From an uncultured virus (IMG/VR IMGVR_UViG_3300028797_000120) (taxonomy: Duplodnaviria > Heunggongvirae > Uroviricota > Caudoviricetes), in IMG/VR virus record IMGVR_UViG_3300028797_000120, positions 1 to 64,000 of that record: 64,000 bases of DNA, one strand, 5' to 3'. Shown one piece after another: positions 7,796-60,285 of the stretch; position 1 is the first letter of the stretch, and each line of letters begins with the position of its first letter. The notes below the pieces were generated by a model. The model saw only the letters and a list, made by a program, of their open reading frames with translations. It had not been told where the DNA came from and made no database searches. The position numbers and the translations under genes were made by a program.

Positions 7796-9271
7796 TCAAC
7801 TCGCGGACGGCGACACCATGTCCTGCGCCGCTGCGATCGCGATCACGTCGTCCTCACGTATGCCGGCGCATGCCGGCCCTGACAGCGCCGCGGCCAGCGC
7901 GGCCACCTTGTACATCGCGTAGCGCCTGGCCAGCCTGTCCGCGACAGCGGAAACCTCGCCGTCCGCATCCGCGTCCGCGCTTTTCTCCATACGGACGAAC
8001 TGCGGGCACTCCCCGGACGCCATGGCAGACAGAATTCCAGTCACGGCGTCCCATGCGGAGAACCCGCCGGCGGACGCGGACTTCGACAGGGCCTCGCGGA
8101 TCGGACCGGGGACCGGACTAGAGAGCGCGAGCGGGCAGGACGGGTCGTAAGACGCGCAGTTGCAGAACCCGGCGCACGACGCCGTCTTGACGGCCTCCGT
8201 TATGATCCCGGGAACCCTGCGGGCGACATGGCCAGCGTATCGCACGACCTTCCCGTATTCGGGGCCGAACGCGTACTTCAGGAACGATTCGGCGTCGAGG
8301 ATGACGCCGGCGTTCCCGAGCGCGGCGAAGGCGTCGGAAGGGTCAAGGGCCCTGAGCGACGACAGAGTCTCCCCGTCCAGCCTGGCGCCTGCGAGCTTCC
8401 TGAGCTCGAACTCGTATGCCTCCCTAGCCCCCGACGGCTTCGCGCCGCCGAAAATCCACGAGTCCATCCTGGAATAGGCGCCGGCCAGCTTTTTCATGAT
8501 CCCGAGCTTCCTGACCGCCAGGTCCGACTCGATGACCAGATCGTCAGGGAGTACGTATCCCTCGATCTCTGCCCGCTTGACGGAACTGCAGATGGGGATG
8601 TCCTCCGGCATGCCAGAAGCGACCTTCAGGCTCCACGCGATGCGGTCCGCTGGCCGGCCGACGAAGGAGATGTCGAACCACGTCGGCTCGTCATTGTAGG
8701 TCCCGATCTGACTGCCGTCCTCCGCGATCTTCCCGAGGCTGTATTTGACGTGGTCGCACTCGTTCTCGTCGCCCGCCTGCTTCCGTATGGCCCCGCAGCA
8801 TGAGCAGCGGTCAAAAGGCACCTTGGCCGCCATGCTGAAGCTGACCTCGCCGGTCTTCTCGAGGCGGTCAAGATGGTCGCGGGCCTTCTCGTTGTCCGCC
8901 CAGATGTACAGCTCGATCCTGTGCATGTCCGGGTTGTATGCCGCGGCCTTGATCTGACCGATTGCCTTTTCGGGGTCCTTGTTCCTGTGGTGCTGGAAGA
9001 CGTGGCCGTACTTCACGAACGTGTCGTGGTACTTGACGCACGCCTCCTTAGGGAACAGATCCCCGTTCCTGTTCATCGGGTACGCCTCTGAGTCCCCGAG
9101 GGCGACCAGGTGGATCCCCGTCATGCCATCCGGAGGCTTGAGCTGGTCGTACCCGCACCTGAAGATCGTGGAGGCCTGCTTTCTCATCTCGGACGCGGAC
9201 TTCACGATCTCCCCGCCAACCCCGACGGACTGGCTGATGTCGGAAGAGTATGTGACCTTGATCATCGACAT
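7796..9271 (-). CDS. Prohead (capsid maturation) serine protease with CxxC insertion
   Basis: NRNGDLF, HVFQHHRNKDP (His), VSFSMAAKV (Ser) and WFDISFVGRPAD motifs match the HK97/assemblin-type prohead protease layout; first gene of the head operon. Confidence 0.8.
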   Translation of the reverse strand: MSMIKVTYSSDISQSVGVGGEIVKSASEMRKQASTIFRCGYDQLKPPDGMTGIHLVALGDSEAYPMNRNGDLFPKEACVKYHDTFVKYGHVFQHHRNKDPEKAIGQIKAAAYNPDMHRIELYIWADNEKARDHLDRLEKTGEVSFSMAAKVPFDRCSCCGAIRKQAGDENECDHVKYSLGKIAEDGSQIGTYNDEPTWFDISFVGRPADRIAWSLKVASGMPEDIPICSSVKRAEIEGYVLPDDLVIESDLAVRKLGIMKKLAGAYSRMDSWIFGGAKPSGAREAYEFELRKLAGARLDGETLSSLRALDPSDAFAALGNAGVILDAESFLKYAFGPEYGKVVRYAGHVARRVPGIITEAVKTASCAGFCNCASYDPSCPLALSSPVPGPIREALSKSASAGGFSAWDAVTGILSAMASGECPQFVRMEKSADADADGEVSAVADRLARRYAMYKVAALAAALSGPACAGIREDDVIAIAAAQDMVSPSAS

Positions 9272-15604: not shown

Positions 15605-17707
15605 CTACACCCCCTTTATCTCGACAGGGTCGTTCGGGCCGATCTCGCCGCCCCTGTACGCCCTGATCGCGTCCGCCTTCGTCTCGAACACCCTGACCGG
15701 ACGCTTCGTCCTGCCCCTCGTAAGCGCCCACAGCCCGGATATCTGCTCCTTCTCGGGCTTGTACCTGACGGACTTCATGTCCGTAAGGCTGATGAGGTTC
15801 TCGGACGGGAGCATCTTCTCAAGGGACTGCTTTGCGGCCTTGTCGCTCGCCGGCACGTGGATGTTCACCGTGTTGCTGAGAACGACGCCGTCGTCTGAAA
15901 TGAACGTGTCGGGGCCTGGCACAGTAAGATCATACCCGATTTCCTCCTTGCCCGTCTTCTCGACGGACTTGATCTTGAGCCACGAAACCTTATATGACGC
16001 CGTCTCCGAAAGGGCCTTCATCTCGGCGCAATCCCTGAGTTCGGTGTCCGGGCTTCCGTACAGGGAAAACAGAGCCTTTATGTCCCCCAATTGTGACCAT
16101 GTAAGGAATCCCTTCTTCCTCGCGATGTATATGTCGTTAACCGATTTCCTCACATCGGAGGACCATGTCGGAGCGATCCTTGGCTTCGAGGCGTTCCACC
16201 CGTCCGAGAGGGCTTTCAGCTCGTCGCCGCTCACGCTGACCTTCCACGACCTCCTGCTTCCGCCCGCGTCCTTCTCGAGCATCCCGGAGAACCTCGACTC
16301 GATATCAGCAAGCACGGACAATCCATTATCCCTTGCGATTGTGTTCTTTTCGGCCATCTCGTTCCCAATGGCCTCGATATCGCGGACGGTATTCCTGGTT
16401 ATCGTTCCGATACACGCGCGATTCCTCACGTTCATGGCGACACTATTCACTTTTCTTCTCATCGCCATCTCGTCTTCTCCTGCGGATCCCTCGTCAGAAC
16501 CCGAAACCTCGAAAGTCGGTATCAGACGCGATATCTTTTCCGCTATTCCGCGAGGGAACGGGATCACATCGTTCCTGACGTAGGTTGAGCGCGTGTCAAC
16601 ATGGGAAGAGACGAAAATGTCCCTCTTTCTCGAATGGCAGCACATCGAGAGGAGATCCACGCGCTTCGCGTCAACTGTGCTTACTGAGCATATCCAAGAG
16701 TCGTTCCCTCCGGACGTGCGCTTGCTGTAGGAAATAGAAGACCCGACCCCGAGGAGCTGGCAGCACCTCCTGAACTCCCTGACGAGACGGATGGATGTGC
16801 TTGAGAACGATATCAGGAGCTGGGGCTTCTCTTTGCTGTGGCTCAGGCATACCGTCCCGTCCGTAGCGATAAGCCCGTTAACGAGACCAAGGATAAACTC
16901 CCTTCCAGCGAACTGGAACCAGACCGGAAGCCTCTTATTGGCTGACCCGGACGTTTTCTCGTCCCCATGCCCGTCGATGAGCTCCTTGATCCGTCCTCCG
17001 AGAATACTTCGTCTACCGGAGTTCAGCCTGTAAGCGGTCGTGTCCCCGTACCTACCGGACTCATCGCAGAACCTGTGCTCGATCTTCGATATCGTGAAGT
17101 CCGGGAAAACGGTCTTCAGGAAGTCTGATACGAAGGCGATGTTATATCCATCGTTGTCCGAGAGATATGGGTTTAGGCACCTGTCCGCCCATCCGTCTCC
17201 AGCCATGATTCCGACGAACTGTCCGAAACCGAACCCGATTTCAGTACACAGCCCTGACTTTTCCAGCTTGATCATCCCATCCTGAAAATCAAACGACAGG
17301 CCATCAACAGAGGAGGCTAGAGGACAGTCCGATACGGGGACGAGAACATTCTTGTCCATCGCATCGGACGGCGTGAACCTCCCCGGAGTCATTGAGTCTC
17401 CGTTGGCCGCGATGCCGTAGACTGCCCTCGGGTCGTTGTCCGTGATGATCTGCCTTCCGTCCTCAAGGTTTACGATCTCAACCTTCTTCCCCCGATGCAC
17501 GGACCAGAATTTGACATCCCTGAACTCGGGGAGACCGGTCTTCTCGTTGTATGAGGAAACCCTCACGCCTTCCGGGACATCGTAGAACTCAATGTCGTAT
17601 CCGGAATCCTTCCTCACTGACGAGAGCCCGCCATGGGGGAAGTCCTCGAGATCAACGACAACCGGGACACCTTCCATCTCAGCCACCACGCTCTTTTTGA
17701 TCTGCAT
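15605..17707 (-). CDS. C-terminal split-intein half with LAGLIDADG homing endonuclease, fused to an 88-aa RNA polymerase beta' C-extein
   Basis: FVGIMAGDGW and LVNGLIATDGTV endonuclease motifs; ends GYDLTVPGPDTFISDDGVVLSN|TVNIHVPAS..MLPSENL, where TVNIHVP aligns with the QMAVHVP that follows NADFDGD in RpoC; own AAGGAG RBS. Confidence 0.85.
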   Translation of the reverse strand: MQIKKSVVAEMEGVPVVVDLEDFPHGGLSSVRKDSGYDIEFYDVPEGVRVSSYNEKTGLPEFRDVKFWSVHRGKKVEIVNLEDGRQIITDNDPRAVYGIAANGDSMTPGRFTPSDAMDKNVLVPVSDCPLASSVDGLSFDFQDGMIKLEKSGLCTEIGFGFGQFVGIMAGDGWADRCLNPYLSDNDGYNIAFVSDFLKTVFPDFTISKIEHRFCDESGRYGDTTAYRLNSGRRSILGGRIKELIDGHGDEKTSGSANKRLPVWFQFAGREFILGLVNGLIATDGTVCLSHSKEKPQLLISFSSTSIRLVREFRRCCQLLGVGSSISYSKRTSGGNDSWICSVSTVDAKRVDLLSMCCHSRKRDIFVSSHVDTRSTYVRNDVIPFPRGIAEKISRLIPTFEVSGSDEGSAGEDEMAMRRKVNSVAMNVRNRACIGTITRNTVRDIEAIGNEMAEKNTIARDNGLSVLADIESRFSGMLEKDAGGSRRSWKVSVSGDELKALSDGWNASKPRIAPTWSSDVRKSVNDIYIARKKGFLTWSQLGDIKALFSLYGSPDTELRDCAEMKALSETASYKVSWLKIKSVEKTGKEEIGYDLTVPGPDTFISDDGVVLSNTVNIHVPASDKAAKQSLEKMLPSENLISLTDMKSVRYKPEKEQISGLWALTRGRTKRPVRVFETKADAIRAYRGGEIGPNDPVEIKGV

Positions 17708-17843
17708 CTCCTAAACTCCTTTTCTGATTGGATGCGTGATAATTTATCAAAAACTTAAGATTGATGCAACCAATATCTTTGCTACTCAAAAAGTCGTCAA
17801 GAGCCTTGCCAGTAAGGCTGACGCGAACGCTTCCAATCTGCTG
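15872..17843 (-). mobile_element. Intein 2 (apparently split: IntN 17682-17843, IntC 15872-17707) inserted directly after the catalytic NADFDGD
   Basis: Extein continuity NADFDGD|TVNIHVP; IntN begins QQIGSVRV; IntC ends SN before Thr+1. Confidence 0.85.
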
Positions 17844-20800
17844 GTCGCCGTCGAAGTCGGCGTTGAACGCGCCACAGACTAGAGGGCAGACGTTGATTGA
17901 GCGCCCTTTCACGATGTGAGGCTTGAAGGCCATGATGTTGAACTTGTGCCACGTCGGGGCCCTGTCCATGAGAACGGGCCGCTCCTCCATGACGTCGTCC
18001 AGTATGTGCCTCGCAGTGGCGTTTCTCTCGTCGATCATCTCCTTTGAGGCGACCGGGGAATAGCCGCGCTGGACGAGCTTGCGCTCTACGAAGGGTCTGA
18101 ATATTGTCCAGGCCATGTCCTCAGGGATCCCGATCTGGTCCATGCTGAGGTTGCCGTTCGGGGTGATGACGGAGCGTCCGACGAGGTCCTGGGTCTTCGA
18201 GACGGTCTTTGCCTGGAACATCCCCATCTTCGGGACTGTCCCTATCACCTGCCTGACGGCGCCCTTGAGGTTCTTCGCGCGGCCCTCCTGCGTTACGGGG
18301 TCACCGAGCCCGTAGGCGGCCTTCACGGCCCCGTAGACGGCAAGGCGCTCGTCCGCGAGGGCGGAGGCGGGGAGCTCCCTGGAGAGGTCCTCGTAGTTGC
18401 GCTTCATCTCGATGAGCTCCTTGTAGAGCTCGTTCATGTCGGGCACGAGGGCTACGTCGCCCATCTTGGAGACCGGGCGGAACATGGGCGGGAGAACGGG
18501 AACCCGCGAGATCATCCAGTCTGACGGAGAGATGCCCATCTTATTGGCGGACTTCAGGTATCCGAGGACCTTAACGGCGTTGTCCCGCTGCGCCCCGCGC
18601 CTGGTTAGAACCTCCGAGCGGGCCTTCTCGATGGCGCCGTCCACGTCGACCTTCGACAGGGCTTCCCTGAGGGCTTCCCCGCCCGTCTTGCCGTTCAGCT
18701 CCTCGCGTCCGGAGAGGACGGCCTCCATTTTCTTCGCCGTCAGTCCGAGGACGCGGCGTACGGGCTCCTCCATCATCGGGTTTGGGACGGGATCCGGGAG
18801 CGTGATCATGCTCCAGCGGTTTCCGCCCATCCCGCCCGTCTTTCCGAGGTCGAAGAGTCCTCCCCTTACGGGGTTCATGTCGGGGTCGACCATCTGCGAG
18901 GAGTCGATCACTCGGCCCTGGGCGAGCTCGTCGATGTCCTTGTCGGTCTGCGGCATGATGGATGTGACGTCTCCCTTCTCCACGACGTTCACGCCGCCGG
19001 CGCGGAGTGTGTTCAGGAACTTCTGGTAGATGAACGGCACTCCGGGCTCCTCGACGGGGAGCCCGAGGCGGTAGCGGCGCCAGTACTCGTCGTTGCGCGA
19101 GCCGCGCAGGGTTATGGAGTCCTTCAGGACGTCGGTCGCGCCGTGAGAGAGCAGGGCCGTCGCGTCAAAACCAGAATTTGAAACCAGGCAGTCAGAAGCA
19201 CAGTATTTGTGCGATTTCGCAACTGTAATGTCATACAGGCATATTTCGTCGTCTGGACCATGCTTGCCATCGCTGTACGGCCTCACAGATGTGACAAGCG
19301 CCGGGACGCTTCCAAGTGCGTAAGCAGTGTCTACACCTACGTACGTTTCATACAGCCTTGAAACTTCATTTATCAGCCACTTCTTAGAGGCTGGTATGTC
19401 TTCAGGCCTGATGTATTTGGCTACAATACGAGCCATACTGCGGCAGGCATCAGCAGACAACCCCAAGTAATAATACTCTTTTTTTACACCTTTGTAGGTT
19501 TTATGCGTCGTCCTGACAGTCACGCCAGCGCCAAGCCTCCCGCAAAGCCATTCGGCAAGCCTACAGTTCTCTTCATACGTAAAGTTCAATGTTGATATTG
19601 CCCCAAATGGGCTACCGGTCGGCACTCCATTCTTCGTGTGCTCAGATGCGCAGCCATCGTCAAGGAACCATGCGGCTATGCCGACATCATTTATGTTAGA
19701 CAGGTCGACGTTGACAAGGCTCTTACGACCGAGAGACCCGTCTGGCTGTCTATAGAACATGTTCTTGAGCCGTTCTGCTATGTCATGGCGGTGAATCTGA
19801 AAATACACAATATGCGAGTCGTCTCCATCAGCACGCCTAAATCCAGTCTTGCTCTTCCTCTGGGTGTTCTTTCTGCTTGACACCAGCGCTCCTAGGCAGT
19901 GTATCTTCCAGTTGACGTAGGCGTACTGATGGTGGCTGTGCTGCTCTTGGTAGAACGGTATACATCCGACGTCTAAGCTATTCGTCCTGTCAGACTTGCA
20001 TAGATTGTCGTTTATATTGCATATGCATCCATCGCCAAGCATAGAACCCATTAGAATGGACATCTGGTCCTCTGTAGGCACATACCCGTATGTCGTCAGC
20101 CAGTCACCAGGCCTTAAATCACCAGCAAGAACTTCACCTTTGTTGAAGGAGTACATGTGATGCTGACGTGTGACATGCATCGTCTTGCCTGTGTATACTA
20201 CTCGCTTACGGCTACAATTATCTGACCCTGGCAGATAGTTAATTGATATGGACAGAACCTCTGACATCTTCCCCTTGCGGCAGAACCAGTTCGTTATGAG
20301 AGAATAACCCCATGACCCGTTGTCGAAGCGGGTCCACACGTATTCGGGAATTTTCTTGTCTACGATATGACCTATGGATTCCTCTCCATGCAATACCCTG
20401 ATCGGCTGATCTGCGGTGAAACACATACGCTTAGCACCGTCATCGCCCCCCTTGGCCGGCTGCTCGTCCATCGTGTAGGCGCTGTCCACGCCGCGTGCCG
20501 AGAACTTCTTTTCGGCCAGGTGGTGGAACGCCTTGACGTACGCGTACCCGTCTCCGACGTTCTTGATGATCCTTCCCGTCTGCGGGTCGAACACGTCTGA
20601 CGACTCCTTGACGCCGTTCTCGTCCATCTGCCGTTTGACCCATGCGGTCCACCCCTCTTGCGGCGGCAGCTGAGGGATGCGGATCTGCTTCCCTGTCTTC
20701 TTGGCCACCTTGGCGAGGTTCATCAGGGCTATCTGGCCCGGGGCGACGCGGGAGAGGAAACCCATGGGGTTCATCAGCATGTCGTACGGCTCGTTCGTGG

Positions 20801-23800
20801 CCGCGTCGCGCGGCATCTTATCGTCCGGGATGACGTCCGAGACGACCCCCTTTAGAGAGAAATCGGGGCACAGCTTGTCGCCGGGCTTCACAGGAGGGTC
20901 GCTGTTGACGATCACCTTCGCGCCGTGCGGTCCCGACACGATGTCCGTGACGACTCCAGGCCAGTCGTGCTCCCACTTCTGTGATCTGTCCGTGATGGCG
21001 TTCCTCAGGACGCCGGAGAGCTTTCCGAGCTGTGCGTTCTCCGGTGACAGCATCTTGGGCCCGATGGCGAGGATCATGGGGTCGTCCCTGTGGAGCACGG
21101 TACCGACCTTTACGACGCCGTCGTCCCCGATCGTGTCGGCCTGCGCCTTCGTGTAGGCCGACGGGAACGCCGCGAGGAACTTCGACCTGGCGATCTGCAC
21201 GCCGTTCTTAGTGTCCTGCTCGAAGTTGTACGTGCGCGACGTGGCGAGCTTCTTCGCCGCGGATTCCGAGATCACGATGGCGTCCTCGAACGACGACGTG
21301 CCCTGCGGGGCGGGAAGCACGGCGACCTTCAGGTTCCGTCCCATGGTGACCGTTCCGGTCTTCGGGTCGGTGAAGTTGGAGTTGGCGAGGATTCCGCCCT
21401 CCTCCACCTCGTCTCCCTTTTTCACCTGGGCGGTGAACGAGAGGGAGGACAGGCGGTTGAACGGGAGGCCCTTGACGAGCGACGCGGTGTGCTCGCGGCC
21501 GTCCTTCCCGCGGAGGACGATCTCATTGTCGCTCACCTTCACTACGGTACCGGCGAACGGGGCCGTCAGGCATCCGACCCTCCGCCCGTAGTACTCGCCG
21601 TACGTCGTTTTCCCGTCGTCGGTCAGGCTCTCGACAAGAGGAACCTCTCCCTCTTTCTGGGGGAGGAACTGCTCCCAGAACTTCGACATGTAGAACTGGC
21701 GGGCGCCCATGACGGCCGTTGGCATCGGGTTCATGTTGATGCCGGCAGACACGGTGTTGCCGAACCCAGGCACCATGAAGTCCACCTCGTCCCTGGGGAC
21801 CATCGTAGGCACGCCCTTGCGCATGACGTAGAGGTTGGGTGACTTCGGGTCCTGGCCCGGGAAGGCCACGGTGTGGGACGACGCGTCGTTCAGGGAGACG
21901 TAGCGGGTTTTACCGGTCCGCATGTCGATCATCTTGTTGTAGATCCGGTTGTCGCTCCCCTTCATCGTCCCGAGCGCCGCCCTGACGTCGATCCCGATGC
22001 CGAACGACTCAGGACCGCTGATGAAGTCCACGTAGCCCAGGTAGTCACCCTGGACGTTGCGGGCCTCGTTGGTCACGAGGTCGGGCGAGGAGATGCCGCC
22101 CTCCCCAAGGCGGGTGATGCGGGACTGCTGGGTGAGGAGCGACATCGGGTTCGCCTCCTCTCCTGGCATCGCGAGTCCGGACCCCGAGAGAAAGGTGTCG
22201 AGATAGGGCCCGAGCGCGTTCCTGGCTATGCGGGCCAGCGAGCGGTCCCGCTTCGCCCTGAACAGGAGGGACTTCGTGAGGCGTCCAGAGTCGCGGTCGA
22301 TGCGCTCGCGCATCATGTCCTCCACCCCGTAGAACCGGCTGAAGCGGGGGTTGTCGCGCTCGTCCGGCTCCTCAGCGCCCCTGTTGATGTTCAGGAGCTT
22401 CTGCGCGGCCCTGAGCATGACCTTCCCGGTCACTCCAGAGGCGTTCTCAAGCCCGAGCGTCCGGACGACGACGTCTGGGTCGAGCCCGCTGGAGGCAAGC
22501 GACTCGGAGATGAACGAGGCCTTCTCGGACGGGGTCAGGCTCATGTCGGCCCGGCGGCCGGCGTAGCGCGCGTAGACCTTGTCGACGGCCCTAGGGTCGA
22601 ACTTGGCGATGTTCACGTTCGCAACGGCGTCTCCCCAGGACTTCCGCATGTCGTCATCCGACACGCCGAGGGCGCTCAAAATGGGGTAAAGGGGGACATG
22701 GCCCTGTCCGACGCTCATGTTCAGTGCGCCGGTCGACCTGTCCAGTCCGATCCGGAAGCCGAGCCCGTTCGCCACGTTGAACTGGGACTCGAGCTCGCCG
22801 TTCTGCTTGCGGCGCACGTAGACCCCGGGGGACAGGCGGGCCTGAGAGATGACGGTGTACTCGCTCCCGTTATTGATGATCGTTCCCCTGTCGGTGTAGT
22901 AAGGTACCCTGATGACGCCGTCCCTTCGCTCGTCCAGGACTTTCCCGGTGCGCTTGTCCGTCAGGCGCCACGTCCCGGCGACAGAGCATCCGAGGCGCCT
23001 GTTGTTCAGGATGGCCCTCTTCTGCTGCTCAAGCGTGTAGGAGGTAGGACCCTCGTATTTAACGTCCAGAAGCTCGAGGCGCACGTCGTCGTTCTCGATC
23101 GGGAAGCGGTTCTTGACGGCTTCAAGGACGTTGTCCATGATGGCCTGCCGAGTGGCCGGCGCGTCCGTGAACCCGCGTAGCCTCACGCCCGGAGGCACGC
23201 CCTCCATGGGATCGTCGGCGTCGTCCGCCTGGGAAGTCTTGACTATGCTCTTCTCTTTCTTATATCCGGAAGCAGTCTCCTCGTCGTCAAGATTCTTCTG
23301 AGCCTCTTCCCGAGTGTTGAACACCTTCCCGGGATGGTCTCCGAACCCGCCGTACATGGCGAGTCCGGTGGTCTTAAACCTTCCCCCTTCTTCGATGTCT
23401 GGGGAATCTAGCCAGCAGCAGTAGTAATCCTTTCCGTTGGACCGCTTCCCGCCGTAATAGTATCCTACGATCTTACGTACCTTTCCACTCATCCTCGCGT
23501 GAGGGAAGGTTACCCATTTCCCGATAGGAAATTTTTCCTTCATTTCCGCGGGGATATCATCCTCCTCATGACGATCTTGCGATGTCTTGACGATGCTCTT
23601 TTTTTCGGCTGGATCTGATTTGGCGGCAGGGGCCTTGTCCGCGGGAGCCTGTTTTTCGGTCTTGGCTGGATTCGAGGCCTCCTGGTTCAGGACCCAGACG
23701 TCACCGTTCCTCCTGAGCCTCTTCATGAAGTCGCTGTGGAGCTTCGCCGACTTCGCGACGGCCGCCTCGCTGTAGCTCCTGTTCCCGGGTATCGTGTGGG

Positions 23801-24950
23801 CAGGAGTAAACACCTTTCTCAGAAGCCAGTCGGCGTACTTGTCAGCGGTGAACTCCGCCCCGGCGGCCATGTGGGCCTTGTAACCGGACCTGGACGGCAT
23901 GTAGACCTTCGTGAAATAGTCGATCTGGCTGTCGGACGAGTCTTGAAGCCCGTTCTTCGCGAGCCACGCCTTATAAGCATCAAGAGAGGGGCCCGTGTAC
24001 TGGAAGAGCCCGCGTCCACCTCCCCCTCCCATCTGCTTAGTGGCGTAGTCGAATCTACCTCCTGTCTCCCTGTCTATGTTCGCCAGCACAGCGGCCTCTA
24101 GAATCGGGTTGTTCAGATTCTCGTGGAGCCTCTTTGCAACGTTATTGAACCTTTCGTAGACATCCACCGGACCGGCGGCTTGCTTTGGCGGGGGGATAAC
24201 AATTTTCTGCCCGATAGAGAGAACGTTCGGGTTCTTGAGGCTGTTCGCGGCGATCAGCTCTTTCAAAGGAACCTTTAGCTTTTGGGCGATACCGTAAAGC
24301 GAGTCGCCCTTCTGGACGACGTATTCGGACGGGCGATTGACAGGATTGACCTGGGCCGCCTTCTCGTTGACCTTTATCGGATCGACGATCGGAGCGACGG
24401 ACCTGTACTCGTGGAACGGCTTGGTCTTGCGGTCAGACGAGTCGATCCACTTCCTGAACTCGGCCTTGGAGACAGGCGTGATCCATCCTAGGCCATTCCA
24501 CCCCTTCTGGTAGCAGGCTAGGTAGGTCTTCTTGGCGTCCTCGACGCTGTCGAAACCGTACATGACCTTGTGCTCGTCGAACTTTCCGGTCTTGGGGTCC
24601 ACCTGGTCGATGACGAAGACGCACCCCTTCTCCGGATGGTCGGACAGGTAGATGTCCACCGGGTCGCCGTCCGTGTCTGTCGTGCCCCTGATGTCTCCGT
24701 AGTCGCATGCGAGAGCATTGCTCCACCTCGTCCCGTCCGGAGAGACCCCGGATCGGATTGACCCCTTCGGGTTCTCTATGGACACGCGGAACCCGTCGAT
24801 GGACAGGTGGACCTTTCTGTAGTTCCCCGCCCTTCTCTGCCCTTCTGTGGGGTTCTCGGCTGCGTCAGGGGCTCCTGCGTTCACGGCGCGCTGCGCCGGC
24901 GAGGAGGCCTTTTTCGAGAAGATCGAGTCGATGGTTTCAAGTAGCGTCAT
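17679..24950 (-). CDS. Polyprotein: inorganic pyrophosphatase-like domain + LysM + phage tail-lysozyme-like domain + fused RNA polymerase beta/beta'(N-half), with inteins
   Basis: PPase DYGDIRGTTDTDGDPVD/FDEHKVM; LysM YVVQKGDSLYGIA..NPNVLSIGQKIVIP; lysozyme LANIDRETGG..GRGLFQYTG; beta motifs GTIINNGSEYTVISQ, FEDAIVISE, GDKL..KGVV, NPMGFLSR; beta' motifs GGLFD, PVLPPMFRP, GRSVITP, RAPTWHK, NADFDGD. Confidence 0.92.
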   Translation of the reverse strand: MTLLETIDSIFSKKASSPAQRAVNAGAPDAAENPTEGQRRAGNYRKVHLSIDGFRVSIENPKGSIRSGVSPDGTRWSNALACDYGDIRGTTDTDGDPVDIYLSDHPEKGCVFVIDQVDPKTGKFDEHKVMYGFDSVEDAKKTYLACYQKGWNGLGWITPVSKAEFRKWIDSSDRKTKPFHEYRSVAPIVDPIKVNEKAAQVNPVNRPSEYVVQKGDSLYGIAQKLKVPLKELIAANSLKNPNVLSIGQKIVIPPPKQAAGPVDVYERFNNVAKRLHENLNNPILEAAVLANIDRETGGRFDYATKQMGGGGGRGLFQYTGPSLDAYKAWLAKNGLQDSSDSQIDYFTKVYMPSRSGYKAHMAAGAEFTADKYADWLLRKVFTPAHTIPGNRSYSEAAVAKSAKLHSDFMKRLRRNGDVWVLNQEASNPAKTEKQAPADKAPAAKSDPAEKKSIVKTSQDRHEEDDIPAEMKEKFPIGKWVTFPHARMSGKVRKIVGYYYGGKRSNGKDYYCCWLDSPDIEEGGRFKTTGLAMYGGFGDHPGKVFNTREEAQKNLDDEETASGYKKEKSIVKTSQADDADDPMEGVPPGVRLRGFTDAPATRQAIMDNVLEAVKNRFPIENDDVRLELLDVKYEGPTSYTLEQQKRAILNNRRLGCSVAGTWRLTDKRTGKVLDERRDGVIRVPYYTDRGTIINNGSEYTVISQARLSPGVYVRRKQNGELESQFNVANGLGFRIGLDRSTGALNMSVGQGHVPLYPILSALGVSDDDMRKSWGDAVANVNIAKFDPRAVDKVYARYAGRRADMSLTPSEKASFISESLASSGLDPDVVVRTLGLENASGVTGKVMLRAAQKLLNINRGAEEPDERDNPRFSRFYGVEDMMRERIDRDSGRLTKSLLFRAKRDRSLARIARNALGPYLDTFLSGSGLAMPGEEANPMSLLTQQSRITRLGEGGISSPDLVTNEARNVQGDYLGYVDFISGPESFGIGIDVRAALGTMKGSDNRIYNKMIDMRTGKTRYVSLNDASSHTVAFPGQDPKSPNLYVMRKGVPTMVPRDEVDFMVPGFGNTVSAGINMNPMPTAVMGARQFYMSKFWEQFLPQKEGEVPLVESLTDDGKTTYGEYYGRRVGCLTAPFAGTVVKVSDNEIVLRGKDGREHTASLVKGLPFNRLSSLSFTAQVKKGDEVEEGGILANSNFTDPKTGTVTMGRNLKVAVLPAPQGTSSFEDAIVISESAAKKLATSRTYNFEQDTKNGVQIARSKFLAAFPSAYTKAQADTIGDDGVVKVGTVLHRDDPMILAIGPKMLSPENAQLGKLSGVLRNAITDRSQKWEHDWPGVVTDIVSGPHGAKVIVNSDPPVKPGDKLCPDFSLKGVVSDVIPDDKMPRDAATNEPYDMLMNPMGFLSRVAPGQIALMNLAKVAKKTGKQIRIPQLPPQEGWTAWVKRQMDENGVKESSDVFDPQTGRIIKNVGDGYAYVKAFHHLAEKKFSARGVDSAYTMDEQPAKGGDDGAKRMCFTADQPIRVLHGEESIGHIVDKKIPEYVWTRFDNGSWGYSLITNWFCRKGKMSEVLSISINYLPGSDNCSRKRVVYTGKTMHVTRQHHMYSFNKGEVLAGDLRPGDWLTTYGYVPTEDQMSILMGSMLGDGCICNINDNLCKSDRTNSLDVGCIPFYQEQHSHHQYAYVNWKIHCLGALVSSRKNTQRKSKTGFRRADGDDSHIVYFQIHRHDIAERLKNMFYRQPDGSLGRKSLVNVDLSNINDVGIAAWFLDDGCASEHTKNGVPTGSPFGAISTLNFTYEENCRLAEWLCGRLGAGVTVRTTHKTYKGVKKEYYYLGLSADACRSMARIVAKYIRPEDIPASKKWLINEVSRLYETYVGVDTAYALGSVPALVTSVRPYSDGKHGPDDEICLYDITVAKSHKYCASDCLVSNSGFDATALLSHGATDVLKDSITLRGSRNDEYWRRYRLGLPVEEPGVPFIYQKFLNTLRAGGVNVVEKGDVTSIMPQTDKDIDELAQGRVIDSSQMVDPDMNPVRGGLFDLGKTGGMGGNRWSMITLPDPVPNPMMEEPVRRVLGLTAKKMEAVLSGREELNGKTGGEALREALSKVDVDGAIEKARSEVLTRRGAQRDNAVKVLGYLKSANKMGISPSDWMISRVPVLPPMFRPVSKMGDVALVPDMNELYKELIEMKRNYEDLSRELPASALADERLAVYGAVKAAYGLGDPVTQEGRAKNLKGAVRQVIGTVPKMGMFQAKTVSKTQDLVGRSVITPNGNLSMDQIGIPEDMAWTIFRPFVERKLVQRGYSPVASKEMIDERNATARHILDDVMEERPVLMDRAPTWHKFNIMAFKPHIVKGRSINVCPLVCGAFNADFDGDQQIGSVRVSLTGKALDDFLSSKDIGCINLKFLINYHASNQKRSLGDADQKERGG
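17741..17769 (-). promoter_or_regulatory. Sigma70-like promoter embedded in the IntN coding sequence
   Basis: TTGCAT-17 nt-TAAATT with TG extension, in an AT-rich island ~34 nt upstream of the ATG at 17707. Confidence 0.55.
19176..20423 (-). mobile_element. Intein 1 (contiguous, 416 aa, LAGLIDADG endonuclease) in the RNAP beta C-terminal region
   Basis: GAKRM|CFTADQP...VTRQHHM...LMGSMLGDGC...AWFLDDGC...YDITVAKSHKY..LVSN|SGFDATALLSHGA; exteins align with RpoB GQRFGEMEVWALEAYGA; lower GC than flanks. Confidence 0.92.
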
Positions 24951-58393: not shown

Positions 58394-59287
58394 CTAGCCC
58401 TCCGCCTCAACGATTTTGCCGCATTTCATTGTGTACCACGTGTCTGCCTTGTACTTTTCGCCGTCGATGCACACCATCTTCGCACCGCAAAGATACCAGT
58501 TGTAGTTGGGCACATCATTTCGCCAGTCAGCGAGGACGATATGAGAACCTTTCACGCCCCTGGCCTTGCCGTGGACGCCCCATGCGACGGCAATAGCGGT
58601 TTCGTTTTCTGCGCTTGCTTCGGAGTTGTAGCCTGTTGCGCTTGCGGCGGAGCGGACGCCCGTTGCGCTTGCGACGGAGTAGTCGCCCGTTACGCTTGCG
58701 GCGGAGCAGTCGCCAGCTGCGCTTGCGACGGAATTATAGTCAGTTGTGCTTGCGGCGGAGCACTCGCCCGTTACGCTTGCGGCAGAGTAGTGGCACATTG
58801 CGCTTGCGGCGGAGCACCTGCCCGTTGCGCTTGCAACGGAGTGATGGCCTGTTGCGCTTGCAACGGAGTGATGGCCTGTTGCGCTTGCAACGGAGTGATG
58901 GCCTGTTGCGCTTGCTGCGGAGCGGACGCCATTTACGCTTGCGAAACCATGATCTTCATAAGCTTTCGCCTCTGGCTTGACCCGCGCAATCGTGTAGTCG
59001 ATAGCGGCCTTGACCAGCCCGGCGAATGTCAGCCGCGCTCCGATAGTGATCTTCGTCGCTGCAATCTTCGAATCTCCACCATTATGGTCGATGTCGCCTC
59101 CCATCTCAACTTCATGATACACCGACTCGTCGTACAGACAATAATAATACAGGCAATCAAGCGGGTTTTCGCAAGCATGAAAACCCTCTCTACAACAACT
59201 GGCTCTGTCCGTCTCGTATGACTTGCCCTCCTCGTACTGGAATCCGCGGCAGGTCATATCCTTATTGAAACCCTTATAGGCCTTCAT
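58394..59287 (-). CDS. DUF7666-like protein with ~12 nine-residue beta-solenoid repeats
   Basis: MKAYKGFNKDMTCRGFQYEEG..GFHACENPLD N-domain; SATGxxSAA repeats; IDGEKYKADTWY C-cap. Confidence 0.75.
   Translation of the reverse strand: MKAYKGFNKDMTCRGFQYEEGKSYETDRASCCREGFHACENPLDCLYYYCLYDESVYHEVEMGGDIDHNGGDSKIAATKITIGARLTFAGLVKAAIDYTIARVKPEAKAYEDHGFASVNGVRSAASATGHHSVASATGHHSVASATGHHSVASATGRCSAASAMCHYSAASVTGECSAASTTDYNSVASAAGDCSAASVTGDYSVASATGVRSAASATGYNSEASAENETAIAVAWGVHGKARGVKGSHIVLADWRNDVPNYNWYLCGAKMVCIDGEKYKADTWYTMKCGKIVEAEG
58605..58945. repeat. 27-bp degenerate tandem coding repeat
   Basis: Three identical units GTTGCGCTTGCAACGGAGTGATGGCCT plus degenerate flanking copies. Confidence 0.85.
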
Positions 59288-60263
59288 CCCAATCCTCCAC
59301 CCTAACGATTTTCCCGTCACGCAGAGCATACCACGTGTCGGGCTTGTACTCAGACCCGTCGATCCGTATCGCCTTAACTCCGAGGACGTTATGTTCGACA
59401 TCGCGCTCGGTCAGCACAAGCCAGCATCCTATCGCACCGCGCGCCATGCAGTTGGCGCCCAGGACGGCAGCTATGGCGTTCTTACCTTTTACCTCTGCGT
59501 TTGATAAGTCTCCGGTAGCCGCTGCGTTTGATAAGTCTCCAGAAGCCGATGCATGTGATTCGACCCCGGAAGTCGTTGCGTTCGACTCGTCTCCTGAAGT
59601 CGCGGCGTGCGCTCTGTCACCCGAAGTCGCTGCGTTTGCGTTGTGTCCAGAAGTAGCGGCGCCTGCGCTGCCTCCAGCAGTCGCGGCGTTTGAGCCATCT
59701 CCCGAAGTCGCGGCGTGTGCGAAGGCTCCGGATGTCGCGGCGTGTGCGAAGGCTCCGGATGTCGCGGCGTGTGCGAAGGCTCCGGATGTCGCGGCGTGTG
59801 CGCTGCCTCCAGCAGTCGCGGCGTTTGAGCCTTCTCCCGAAGTCGCGGCGTTTGCGCAGACACCGGAAGTCGCGGCGTATGCGAAGTCTCCGGATGTCGC
59901 GGCGTGTGCTAAGGCTCCCGAAGTCGCGACGTGTTCATGGCCTACAGGAGAAGCATTTGCTTTATTTAACACAAAGCTGGTTCCAGCCTTGACCATGTCA
60001 GCCATAGTCATCCTGGGGCCGATTTTGATTCTGGTCGATGCTACCTTCGTCCCTCCTTTTTCGCTGACGATTTCGCCGTCAAGCTCGACCTCGTGATAAA
60101 CGGATTCGCCCGGTTGGTAGTAGAAAAAACAGTCCAACGGGTTCTCACATGCGTGGAACCCGCATTCACAAATTTCAGCCAGGTCCGTCTCGTACGACCC
60201 GCCTTCCTCGTACTGGAAGCCGCGGCAGGTCATATCCTTATTGAAACCTTTATAAGCCTTCAT
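59274..60263 (-). CDS. DUF7666-like protein with ~16 nine-residue repeats, paralogue of 58394..59287
   Basis: Same N-domain and C-cap; ATSGxxAxA repeats. Confidence 0.75.
   Translation of the reverse strand: MKAYKGFNKDMTCRGFQYEEGGSYETDLAEICECGFHACENPLDCFFYYQPGESVYHEVELDGEIVSEKGGTKVASTRIKIGPRMTMADMVKAGTSFVLNKANASPVGHEHVATSGALAHAATSGDFAYAATSGVCANAATSGEGSNAATAGGSAHAATSGAFAHAATSGAFAHAATSGAFAHAATSGDGSNAATAGGSAGAATSGHNANAATSGDRAHAATSGDESNATTSGVESHASASGDLSNAAATGDLSNAEVKGKNAIAAVLGANCMARGAIGCWLVLTERDVEHNVLGVKAIRIDGSEYKPDTWYALRDGKIVRVEDWDEGL
59495..59930. repeat. 27-bp degenerate tandem coding repeat
   Basis: Three identical units GTCGCGGCGTGTGCGAAGGCTCCGGAT plus degenerate copies. Confidence 0.85.
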
Positions 60264-60285
60264 CCCTAATTCCACCCTTTTAACC

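Follow-up and report, generated by a model that had tools for sequence, protein, structure and literature searches.

A probable naturally split intein of an uncharacterised family in the catalytic loop of a gut-phage RNA polymerase

The first 64 kb (64,000 nucleotides) of the 120-kb virus record IMGVR_UViG_3300028797_000120 form the window analysed here, and carry an RNA polymerase (RNAP) gene of a gut phage that is broken at the catalytic loop, within what is probably a split intein. The two parts of the gene are overlapping open reading frames (ORFs) which, like all features of the locus described below, lie on the minus strand. The upstream frame, ORF1 (17679..24950; 2423 aa), encodes InPase, LysM and phage-lysozyme domains, RNAP beta and the N-terminal part of beta' up to the DxDGD loop (the N-extein), followed by the N-terminal intein half (IntN). 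The Mg-binding motif NADFDGD is located at 17844..17864, its final Asp being extein residue -1, and IntN (17679..17843) consists of 54 residues and a stop codon. As judged from the model of a contiguous homologue, L089, residues 1-11 would correspond to strands 1-2 of the Hint fold, and the remainder would be a linker read across the promoter-like site and ribosome-binding site (RBS) of the second gene. This sigma70-like site (TTGACG-17-GATATT, 9/12; 17772..17800) lies within the IntN coding sequence, in an AT-rich stretch with a GC fraction of 0.34. The start region of ORF2 (17705..17721) comprises AAGGAG at 17721-17716, a spacer of 8 nt, an in-frame TAG at 17713-17711 and the ATG at 17707; ORF2 is read in the +1 frame relative to ORF1, which it overlaps by 29 nt, and comparison with the protein P0001 and with split relatives locates the frame offset in the AAGGAG-ATG spacer.

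ORF2 begins with the C-terminal intein half (IntC; 15872..17707; 612 aa), which carries the rest of the Hint fold and, in frame, a LAGLIDADG endonuclease with motifs GIMAGDGW (17189..17212) and GLIATDG (16856..16876). Its Hint blocks include a motif-NX-like His71 (17495..17497), the block-B residues D90-N-D92-P93-R94 (17426..17440), which place Asp at B:7, Pro at B:10 and Arg at B:11, Asp593 at F:4 (15929..15931), and Ser611-Asn612 in block G (15872..15877, with N612 at 15874-15872). The insert ends in GVVLSN|TVNIHVP (N612|T613) and is followed by a C-extein (15605..15871; 88 aa counted from Thr+1) that provides the final barrel strand and the beginning of the next beta' domain, and which is 77-82% identical to the intein-free alleles L002 and L003. 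Because these empty alleles read DxDGD-TVNIHVP, both junctions are fixed, and the insert extends from the Gln at 17843 to the Asn at 15872. The sequence features listed in the earlier note (the ORF1 end, NADFDGD, the +1-frame ORF2, AAGGAG, TAG, ATG and GVVLSN|TVNIHVP) were thus all found. An 18.1-kb stretch recurs unchanged in a record of 181 kb that has terminal repeats; this record probably stems from the same assembly and was given no weight as support. In that record the remaining beta' domain is represented by a weak match on a distant ORF.

The junction between the two frames was checked in contigs, not raw reads, from four runs, one of which (X4) falls outside the junction. No RNA run was among those listed as containing this stretch, and runs with only a small share of it were not taken as evidence. 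Positions 17000-17870 are reproduced with 0 differences in X2, from a second run of the same sample, and with 19 substitutions and 0 gaps in X3, from another study (depth 6), and positions 17612-17762 are unchanged in X5, from a third study (151 nt, depth 2.8). No indel error appeared, the frame being kept in contigs of independent studies, and an assembly error at the ORF1/ORF2 junction is unlikely. Among the best 120 matches to the ORF1 end, which are proteins without DNA context, 72 are intein-free, 29 are of the split type (including this one), 16 carry a contiguous intein and 3 a sister intein, a split share that is biased upward by the IntN tail included in the query. The 29 split-type N-halves stop 39-54 aa past DxDGD, with homologous tails; they are 50-86% identical to this one over 250 residues, and the RAPTWH-type and DxDGD motifs are intact in all of them. 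In two pairs (P0237/P0121 and P0343/P0122), a split N-half and a protein starting at IntC have exactly equal longest contigs, and the complete genomes with split alleles (G006, G001, G003) each contain a single barrel locus. On the best explanation, which taken as a whole is probable, the split is natural and inherited and belongs to a mobile intein whose family is uncharacterised. As to the length of IntN, 16 of the 29 relatives have 48 aa rather than 54, their tails stopping at an Asp-Ala-Asp that is present here (17679-17699), which suggests that the lineage of this locus may have lost an IntN stop codon.

The position of the break coincides with a set of expression signals that also occur in unbroken alleles. 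Two scans yielded 126 loci, of which 79 non-duplicates have a readable junction; at the DNA level, 72 are contiguous and 7 are split. The earlier note had pointed to contiguous homologues starting with Cys or Ser as evidence against its reading; contiguous alleles do prevail, but they are without Cys1 or Ser1 and carry an internal start at the split point, so that the finding stands. The split loci differ in frame (+1, +2 or in-frame stops), have varied gaps and IntN pieces of 21-54 residues, and in 7/7 a promoter-like site (at least 9/12) and a Shine-Dalgarno (SD) sequence precede the start. The internal start was tested in fixed windows in 68 contiguous loci (4 without the anchor motif were dropped), taking the start codon 19-23 codons before LxDFP: an SD match of at least 4 was found in 50 loci and one of at least 5 in 38, as opposed to 5.1% and 1.1% of 7606 control windows. 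This test is preferred to an earlier one that chose the best start and was hence inflated. Promoter-like sites (at least 9/12) occur in 23/68 contiguous loci, compared to 0 in upstream and 3 in downstream flanks, and a shuffled-linker comparison gave 19 observed versus 4.6. The internal promoter-like site, RBS and start codon of contiguous alleles coincide in position with the break at this locus and in other lineages. In a FastTree tree of 111 sequences, DNA-verified split alleles appear in five separate places, and the present allele groups with three IntC-start proteins, beside the contiguous P0001 and P0002. The halves are far apart in a further, gut-phage lineage (L051-L058; G001, G003, G004), in which an IntN of 12-13 aa starting with Cys lies 1-5 kb from an endonuclease-less IntC-extein gene of 322-324 aa that has its own promoter-like site; in some of these loci, a DNA-ligase-like gene stands between the halves. 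The family thus spans contiguous, overlapping, gapped and far-separated states. We infer that the internal signals serve separate production of the endonuclease half and make an upstream break harmless: the start would have arisen to express that half alone, and an upstream indel or stop codon would then leave both halves translated.

The IntC search returned, among the matches listed, 120 long proteins; 109 share their block-B motif with this insert, and the other 11 fall into sister groups. The family, whose block B reads TDDDPR, was defined by the motif [TSA]-D-x-D-[PED]-R and comprises P0001-P0231 and the non-duplicate loci, which amount to 274 alleles and, at 80% identity, to 223 clusters; C-terminal ends could be parsed in 206 clusters and not in the other 17. 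Insertion is at DxDGD|T, after the third Asp of the RNAP loop, residue -1 being Asp in all 223 clusters under a search pattern that admitted Asp or Asn. Residue 1, on the other hand, varies freely (Q81, E28, A27, D22, L13, F9, C9, Y8, N7, S5, K4, G4, M3, H2, R1), with Cys or Ser in 14/223, and residue 2 is Gln in 157/223. It varies even among the 29 closest split relatives (Q9, L8, K6, M5, E1), and the Gln1 emphasised in the earlier note consequently stands as a description of this allele, which has no nucleophile at residue 1, but not as a signature of the family. With the block-B register set by P0112, a sister allele at the same site (Ser1, S-D-D-H), B:7 is Asp, B:10 Pro and B:11 Arg; the absence of the block-B His, the Asp at F:4 and the Ser at G:6 were all confirmed. 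His71 has a counterpart 18 residues N-terminal to block B in 220/223 clusters, and in the 206 parsed C-ends F:4 is always Asp, the block-F His position is mostly Glu, the penultimate residue is Ser in 205, and +1 is invariably Thr. Among 32 distinct phage-type empty alleles (drawn from 120 pattern matches, the others being of giant-virus type or a duplicate), Thr occupies +1 in 17 and Ala does so in 10. The near-invariant His at the NX position and the invariant block-B Asp and Arg, which had been missed in the earlier note, make the active site look remodelled rather than decayed. For this family, a one-residue shift of the register was rejected because Asn would then occupy the third catalytic position; also rejected was an RNA-level intron, the first codons of the insert varying freely and Hint blocks F and G reaching the junction. 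The family has no match among the cultured phages of INPHARED; 4 of its loci lie in assembled genome contigs, all of them from metagenome-assembled genomes, with no usable host.

AlphaFold models of L089 provide a structural framework for the split. In the model of its insert (predicted local distance difference test, pLDDT, 86), residues 1-11 are folded at high confidence and the following 35 are disordered; structural matches limited to the Hint part start at residue 1 (Z 17-19, root-mean-square deviation (rmsd) 2-3 A), which is aligned with residue 1 of the Pab PolII and Pho RadA inteins. When 130 N-extein and 60 C-extein residues were included (pLDDT 80.5), the exteins jointly matched E. 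coli beta' 346-502 over 154 residues (rmsd 1.7, Z 22.9), with the start of the intein match remaining at the junction. These models place the split in the loop past strand 2, with IntN predicted to be part of the Hint fold and the C-extein to finish the barrel. A profile alignment in which the Hint fold starts at the internal Met and IntN is a non-Hint strand was rejected by both models. Prediction of an IntN+IntC complex gave 0.27 (mark 0.32), with controls not folded, and was weighed neither for nor against binding.

Comparison with described systems suggests that the element is an intein that departs from each described class. The three described classes depend on a residue-1 nucleophile or on a Cys, which stands at F:4 or +1, and nearly always on His B:10. 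By its model, L089 has a Hint-superfamily fold that spans the insert from its first to its last residue, and the family has the terminal Asn, the +1 residue of the Cys/Ser/Thr type and the empty alleles (L002, L003 and 72/120 close RNAPs) expected of an intein. A class 1 intein would have Cys1 or Ser1 with Thr B:7 and His B:10, in place of which Gln, Asp and Pro are found; with cysteine-less Ser1 inteins the family shares the motif-NX His but not Ser1, which occurs in 5/223 clusters. His71 aligns with the His of LIRH in PI-PkoII (by sequence alignment only), the preceding Arg/Lys being Val here. By the exclusion definition of Tori et al. (PMC2807308), the family falls in class 2, sharing with KlbA (Mills et al. 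2014, PMC4031507; PMC2807308) the lack of a residue-1 nucleophile and of the WCT triplet, Ser G:6 and Asp F:4; KlbA inteins, however, begin with Ala1, are followed by Cys+1 and depend on Thr B:7 and His B:10, and all four differ here (Ala1 in 27/223 clusters; Thr+1 in 206/206). Class 3 inteins such as MP-Be DnaB (PMC2807308, PMC7664689) are also phage-borne, devoid of a residue-1 nucleophile and followed by Thr+1, but the Trp B:12, Cys F:4 and Thr G:5 that form the triplet are Ala, Asp (206/206) and Leu here, and His B:10 is absent. With two genes and a short IntN of first strands (54 aa here, 12-13 aa in L051-L058, core residues 1-11), the split is of the atypical kind, as in PolB16 OarG (Pasch et al. 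2023, PMC10189870), whose IntN is likewise very short (15 aa), and which also has Asp at -1, an oxyester-type +1 residue, a motif-NX His at the N-junction and a dispensable His B:10. PolB16 is nevertheless a class 1 intein with Ser1, Thr B:7, His B:10 and His G:6, whereas here residue 1 is free, B:7, B:10 and G:6 are Asp, Pro and Ser, the host is an RNAP and the endonuclease lies inside IntC. Fractured genes (Dassa et al. 2009, PMC2677866) also involve a phage enzyme gene that is interrupted within an intein, and an endonuclease and signals for gene control are found at the interruption; there, the endonuclease gene is free-standing between the halves, and here it is in frame in IntC, the signals pre-existing in unbroken alleles. 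In bacterial intein-like (BIL) domains, no +1 nucleophile is present, and Thr+1 is present here. Assistance of Asn cyclisation by Arg B:11 has a precedent in Ssp DnaE, and splicing without His B:10 in Tko CDC21-1 (both PMC4031507), although in these two residue 1 still undergoes the acyl shift of class 1. At this essential catalytic loop, hundreds of alleles are without the residues on which the described classes rely, and the chemistry is thus probably new.

Trans-splicing without a residue-1 nucleophile, by an intein family that fails the tested residue signatures of classes 1-3, is the probable outcome, and the enzyme is most likely stitched together by undescribed chemistry. IntN strands 1-2 would dock into IntC; the NX-like His, together with Asp B:7 and Asp F:4, would activate the amide between Asp(-1) and residue 1, and the N-extein would move to Thr+1; Asn cyclisation, with Arg B:11 replacing the absent His G:6, and an O-N shift would then generate NADFDGD-TVNIHVP. 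The catalytic roles of all these residues are inferred. Within trans-splicing, direct attack by Thr+1, class-2-like but through an oxyester and without His B:10, has a little less than an even chance; a cyclic anhydride of Asp(-1) is a more tentative candidate, Asp-X cleavage through such anhydrides, also beside inteins, being described in PMC7897204; and it appears unlikely that the acyl group is carried by a different internal residue, be it Asp F:4, Asp B:7 or the NX-like His. Several points weigh against trans-splicing as described. Thr B:7 and His B:10, which class 1 and KlbA inteins require, are absent, and the missing His B:10 is partly a matter of construction, the family having been defined by its block-B motif. 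Direct attack of Thr+1 on an amide was not found for studied inteins in the parts of the intein-class literature consulted. Thr is also the +1 residue in 68/72 of the closest intein-free alleles, so part of its invariance may come from the target site. The promoter match of this window is weak (1 found versus 0.2 expected), and both models derive from the contiguous L089 rather than from this split pair, and come without atom distances.

The earlier note had left a choice between non-standard trans-splicing and a cleavage-only assembly, of which the former is favoured, as said, and the latter is improbable. In it, the Hint domain would cut at its C-terminal end, and perhaps also at Asp-1, and two pieces would assemble non-covalently around a nicked loop, a scheme compatible with the fact that only the C-terminal machinery is canonical (Asp F:4, Asn G:7), that Asp-X bonds can be cleaved via cyclic anhydrides, beside inteins as well (PMC7897204), and that the polymerase is fragmented in any case, a distant gene holding the remainder of beta'. 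Against it stand a Thr+1 that is invariant in alleles only about 30% identical, though Ala is common in free alleles, the conservation of the His, Asp and Arg facing the N-junction, and the retention of an entire Hint fold and a minimal IntN in split versions without endonuclease. A Hint clasp that remains uncut, or an IntN that substitutes for the strand after DxDGD, in either case without self-processing, is very improbable.

The residue after DxDGD in bacterial RNAPs is of the Gln or Glu type, and the clasp draws on the presence of Gln or Glu at residue 1 in 109/223 clusters, as in cellular RNAPs; giant-virus empty alleles have Glu at this position. Yet the barrel-containing L089 model puts IntN in the Hint fold and the C-extein in the barrel, the terminal Asn and Thr+1 are invariant, and an insert of 600 aa at the Mg loop should obstruct the cleft. 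Alternatively, ribosomes might shift by +1 within the 29-nt overlap, which in this clade would yield a contiguous precursor and splicing in cis; this reading is suggested by the SD-like sequence and A-run right at the junction of so short an overlap, and by the persistence of the same overlap in close relatives, as judged by their tails. It is hardly likely, for the in-frame TAG leaves only the overlap as room for a shift, the halves of other split alleles are separated by gaps, by in-frame stops or by kilobases and stand in either frame, and L009 and L067, whose IntN ends are identical, are one base apart ahead of the ATG. The idea that the gene was misassembled, or that the polymerase died recently, draws on the prevalence of contiguous alleles in the family and on the chance that the best-matching run is itself the source sample; the gap-free contig from an independent study, the 28 further split-type N-halves, 50-86% identical and with intact motifs, and a complete genome without a second barrel locus largely refute it, and it retains almost no credence. 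The view of the earlier note that a real, atypically split intein occupies the catalytic loop, polymerase completion needing a second gene product, is upheld.

It is an evenly balanced proposition that the family represents a fourth mechanistic intein class, one that would splice in cis and in trans with any residue 1 and without His at B:10, F:13 or G:6, possibly using Asp(-1) as an activated acyl donor, and whose own promoter and start would let genes split repeatedly without a dead intermediate. The family was absent from the literature as covered by titles and the beginnings of abstracts, a scope that does not extend to most subscription journals, InBase, or the supplements of PMC2807308 and PMC10189870 on atypical inteins. 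The presence of promoter, RBS and start before the break offers an answer to the question, raised by Dassa et al. (PMC2677866), of how a broken essential gene survives. If the reading is correct, a cysteine-free split intein with a free residue 1 and a very short N-piece would be of interest to protein engineers, and the simplest system for an assay is that of the L051-L058 lineage, with an N-piece of 12-13 residues and an endonuclease-less C-piece of 235.

Two sister groups occupy the same site. The second family (P0110, P0257, P0311, P0325, P0367-P0430; L264, L268-L270, L279, L280, L291) has 72 matches listed, of which 64 were parsed and 8 were not; the pattern is DxDGN|Cys...Asp|Thr in 61 of the 64 and Asp|...Asp in two, and the remaining one belongs to the main family. 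Its members have Asn for the third catalytic Asp, Cys1, a block B of the form S-x-N-E-S without His, and a terminal Asp. Canonical splicing at a DxDGN|Cys junction would leave Asn at the third catalytic position, and the pattern suggests that the -1 Asx side chain may take part in the chemistry at this site; one idea is that the Asn-1 amide frees the C-terminal end of the intein, deamidating to Asp, another that the register is shifted by one. A third group (P0111, P0112-P0120, P0432, P0433) has Asp-1, Ser1 or Cys1, and a terminal Asp, and is a possible class 1 outgroup; in P0112, the NX His and His B:10 are both kept, and a Met follows an SD-like stretch at the same place.

Other features of the window were recorded alongside. 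The InPase, LysM and tail-lysozyme domains are fused N-terminal to the polymerase (23890-24950), the LysM and lysozyme domains being found only in some relatives; in Salmonella phage Arash, the virion is reported to contain beta and beta' subunits. A second intein, separate and contiguous, lies in the beta part of ORF1 (19176..20423, minus strand; 416 aa), with Cys1, a LAGLIDADG_2 endonuclease and the end SN|S; it is present in L002 and absent from L003. A weak head-protease match at 7796-9271 has an orthologue in L003 (L003:12178-14724) that bears a Cys1 intein, and two neighbouring phrog_4433 paralogues are located at 58394-60275.

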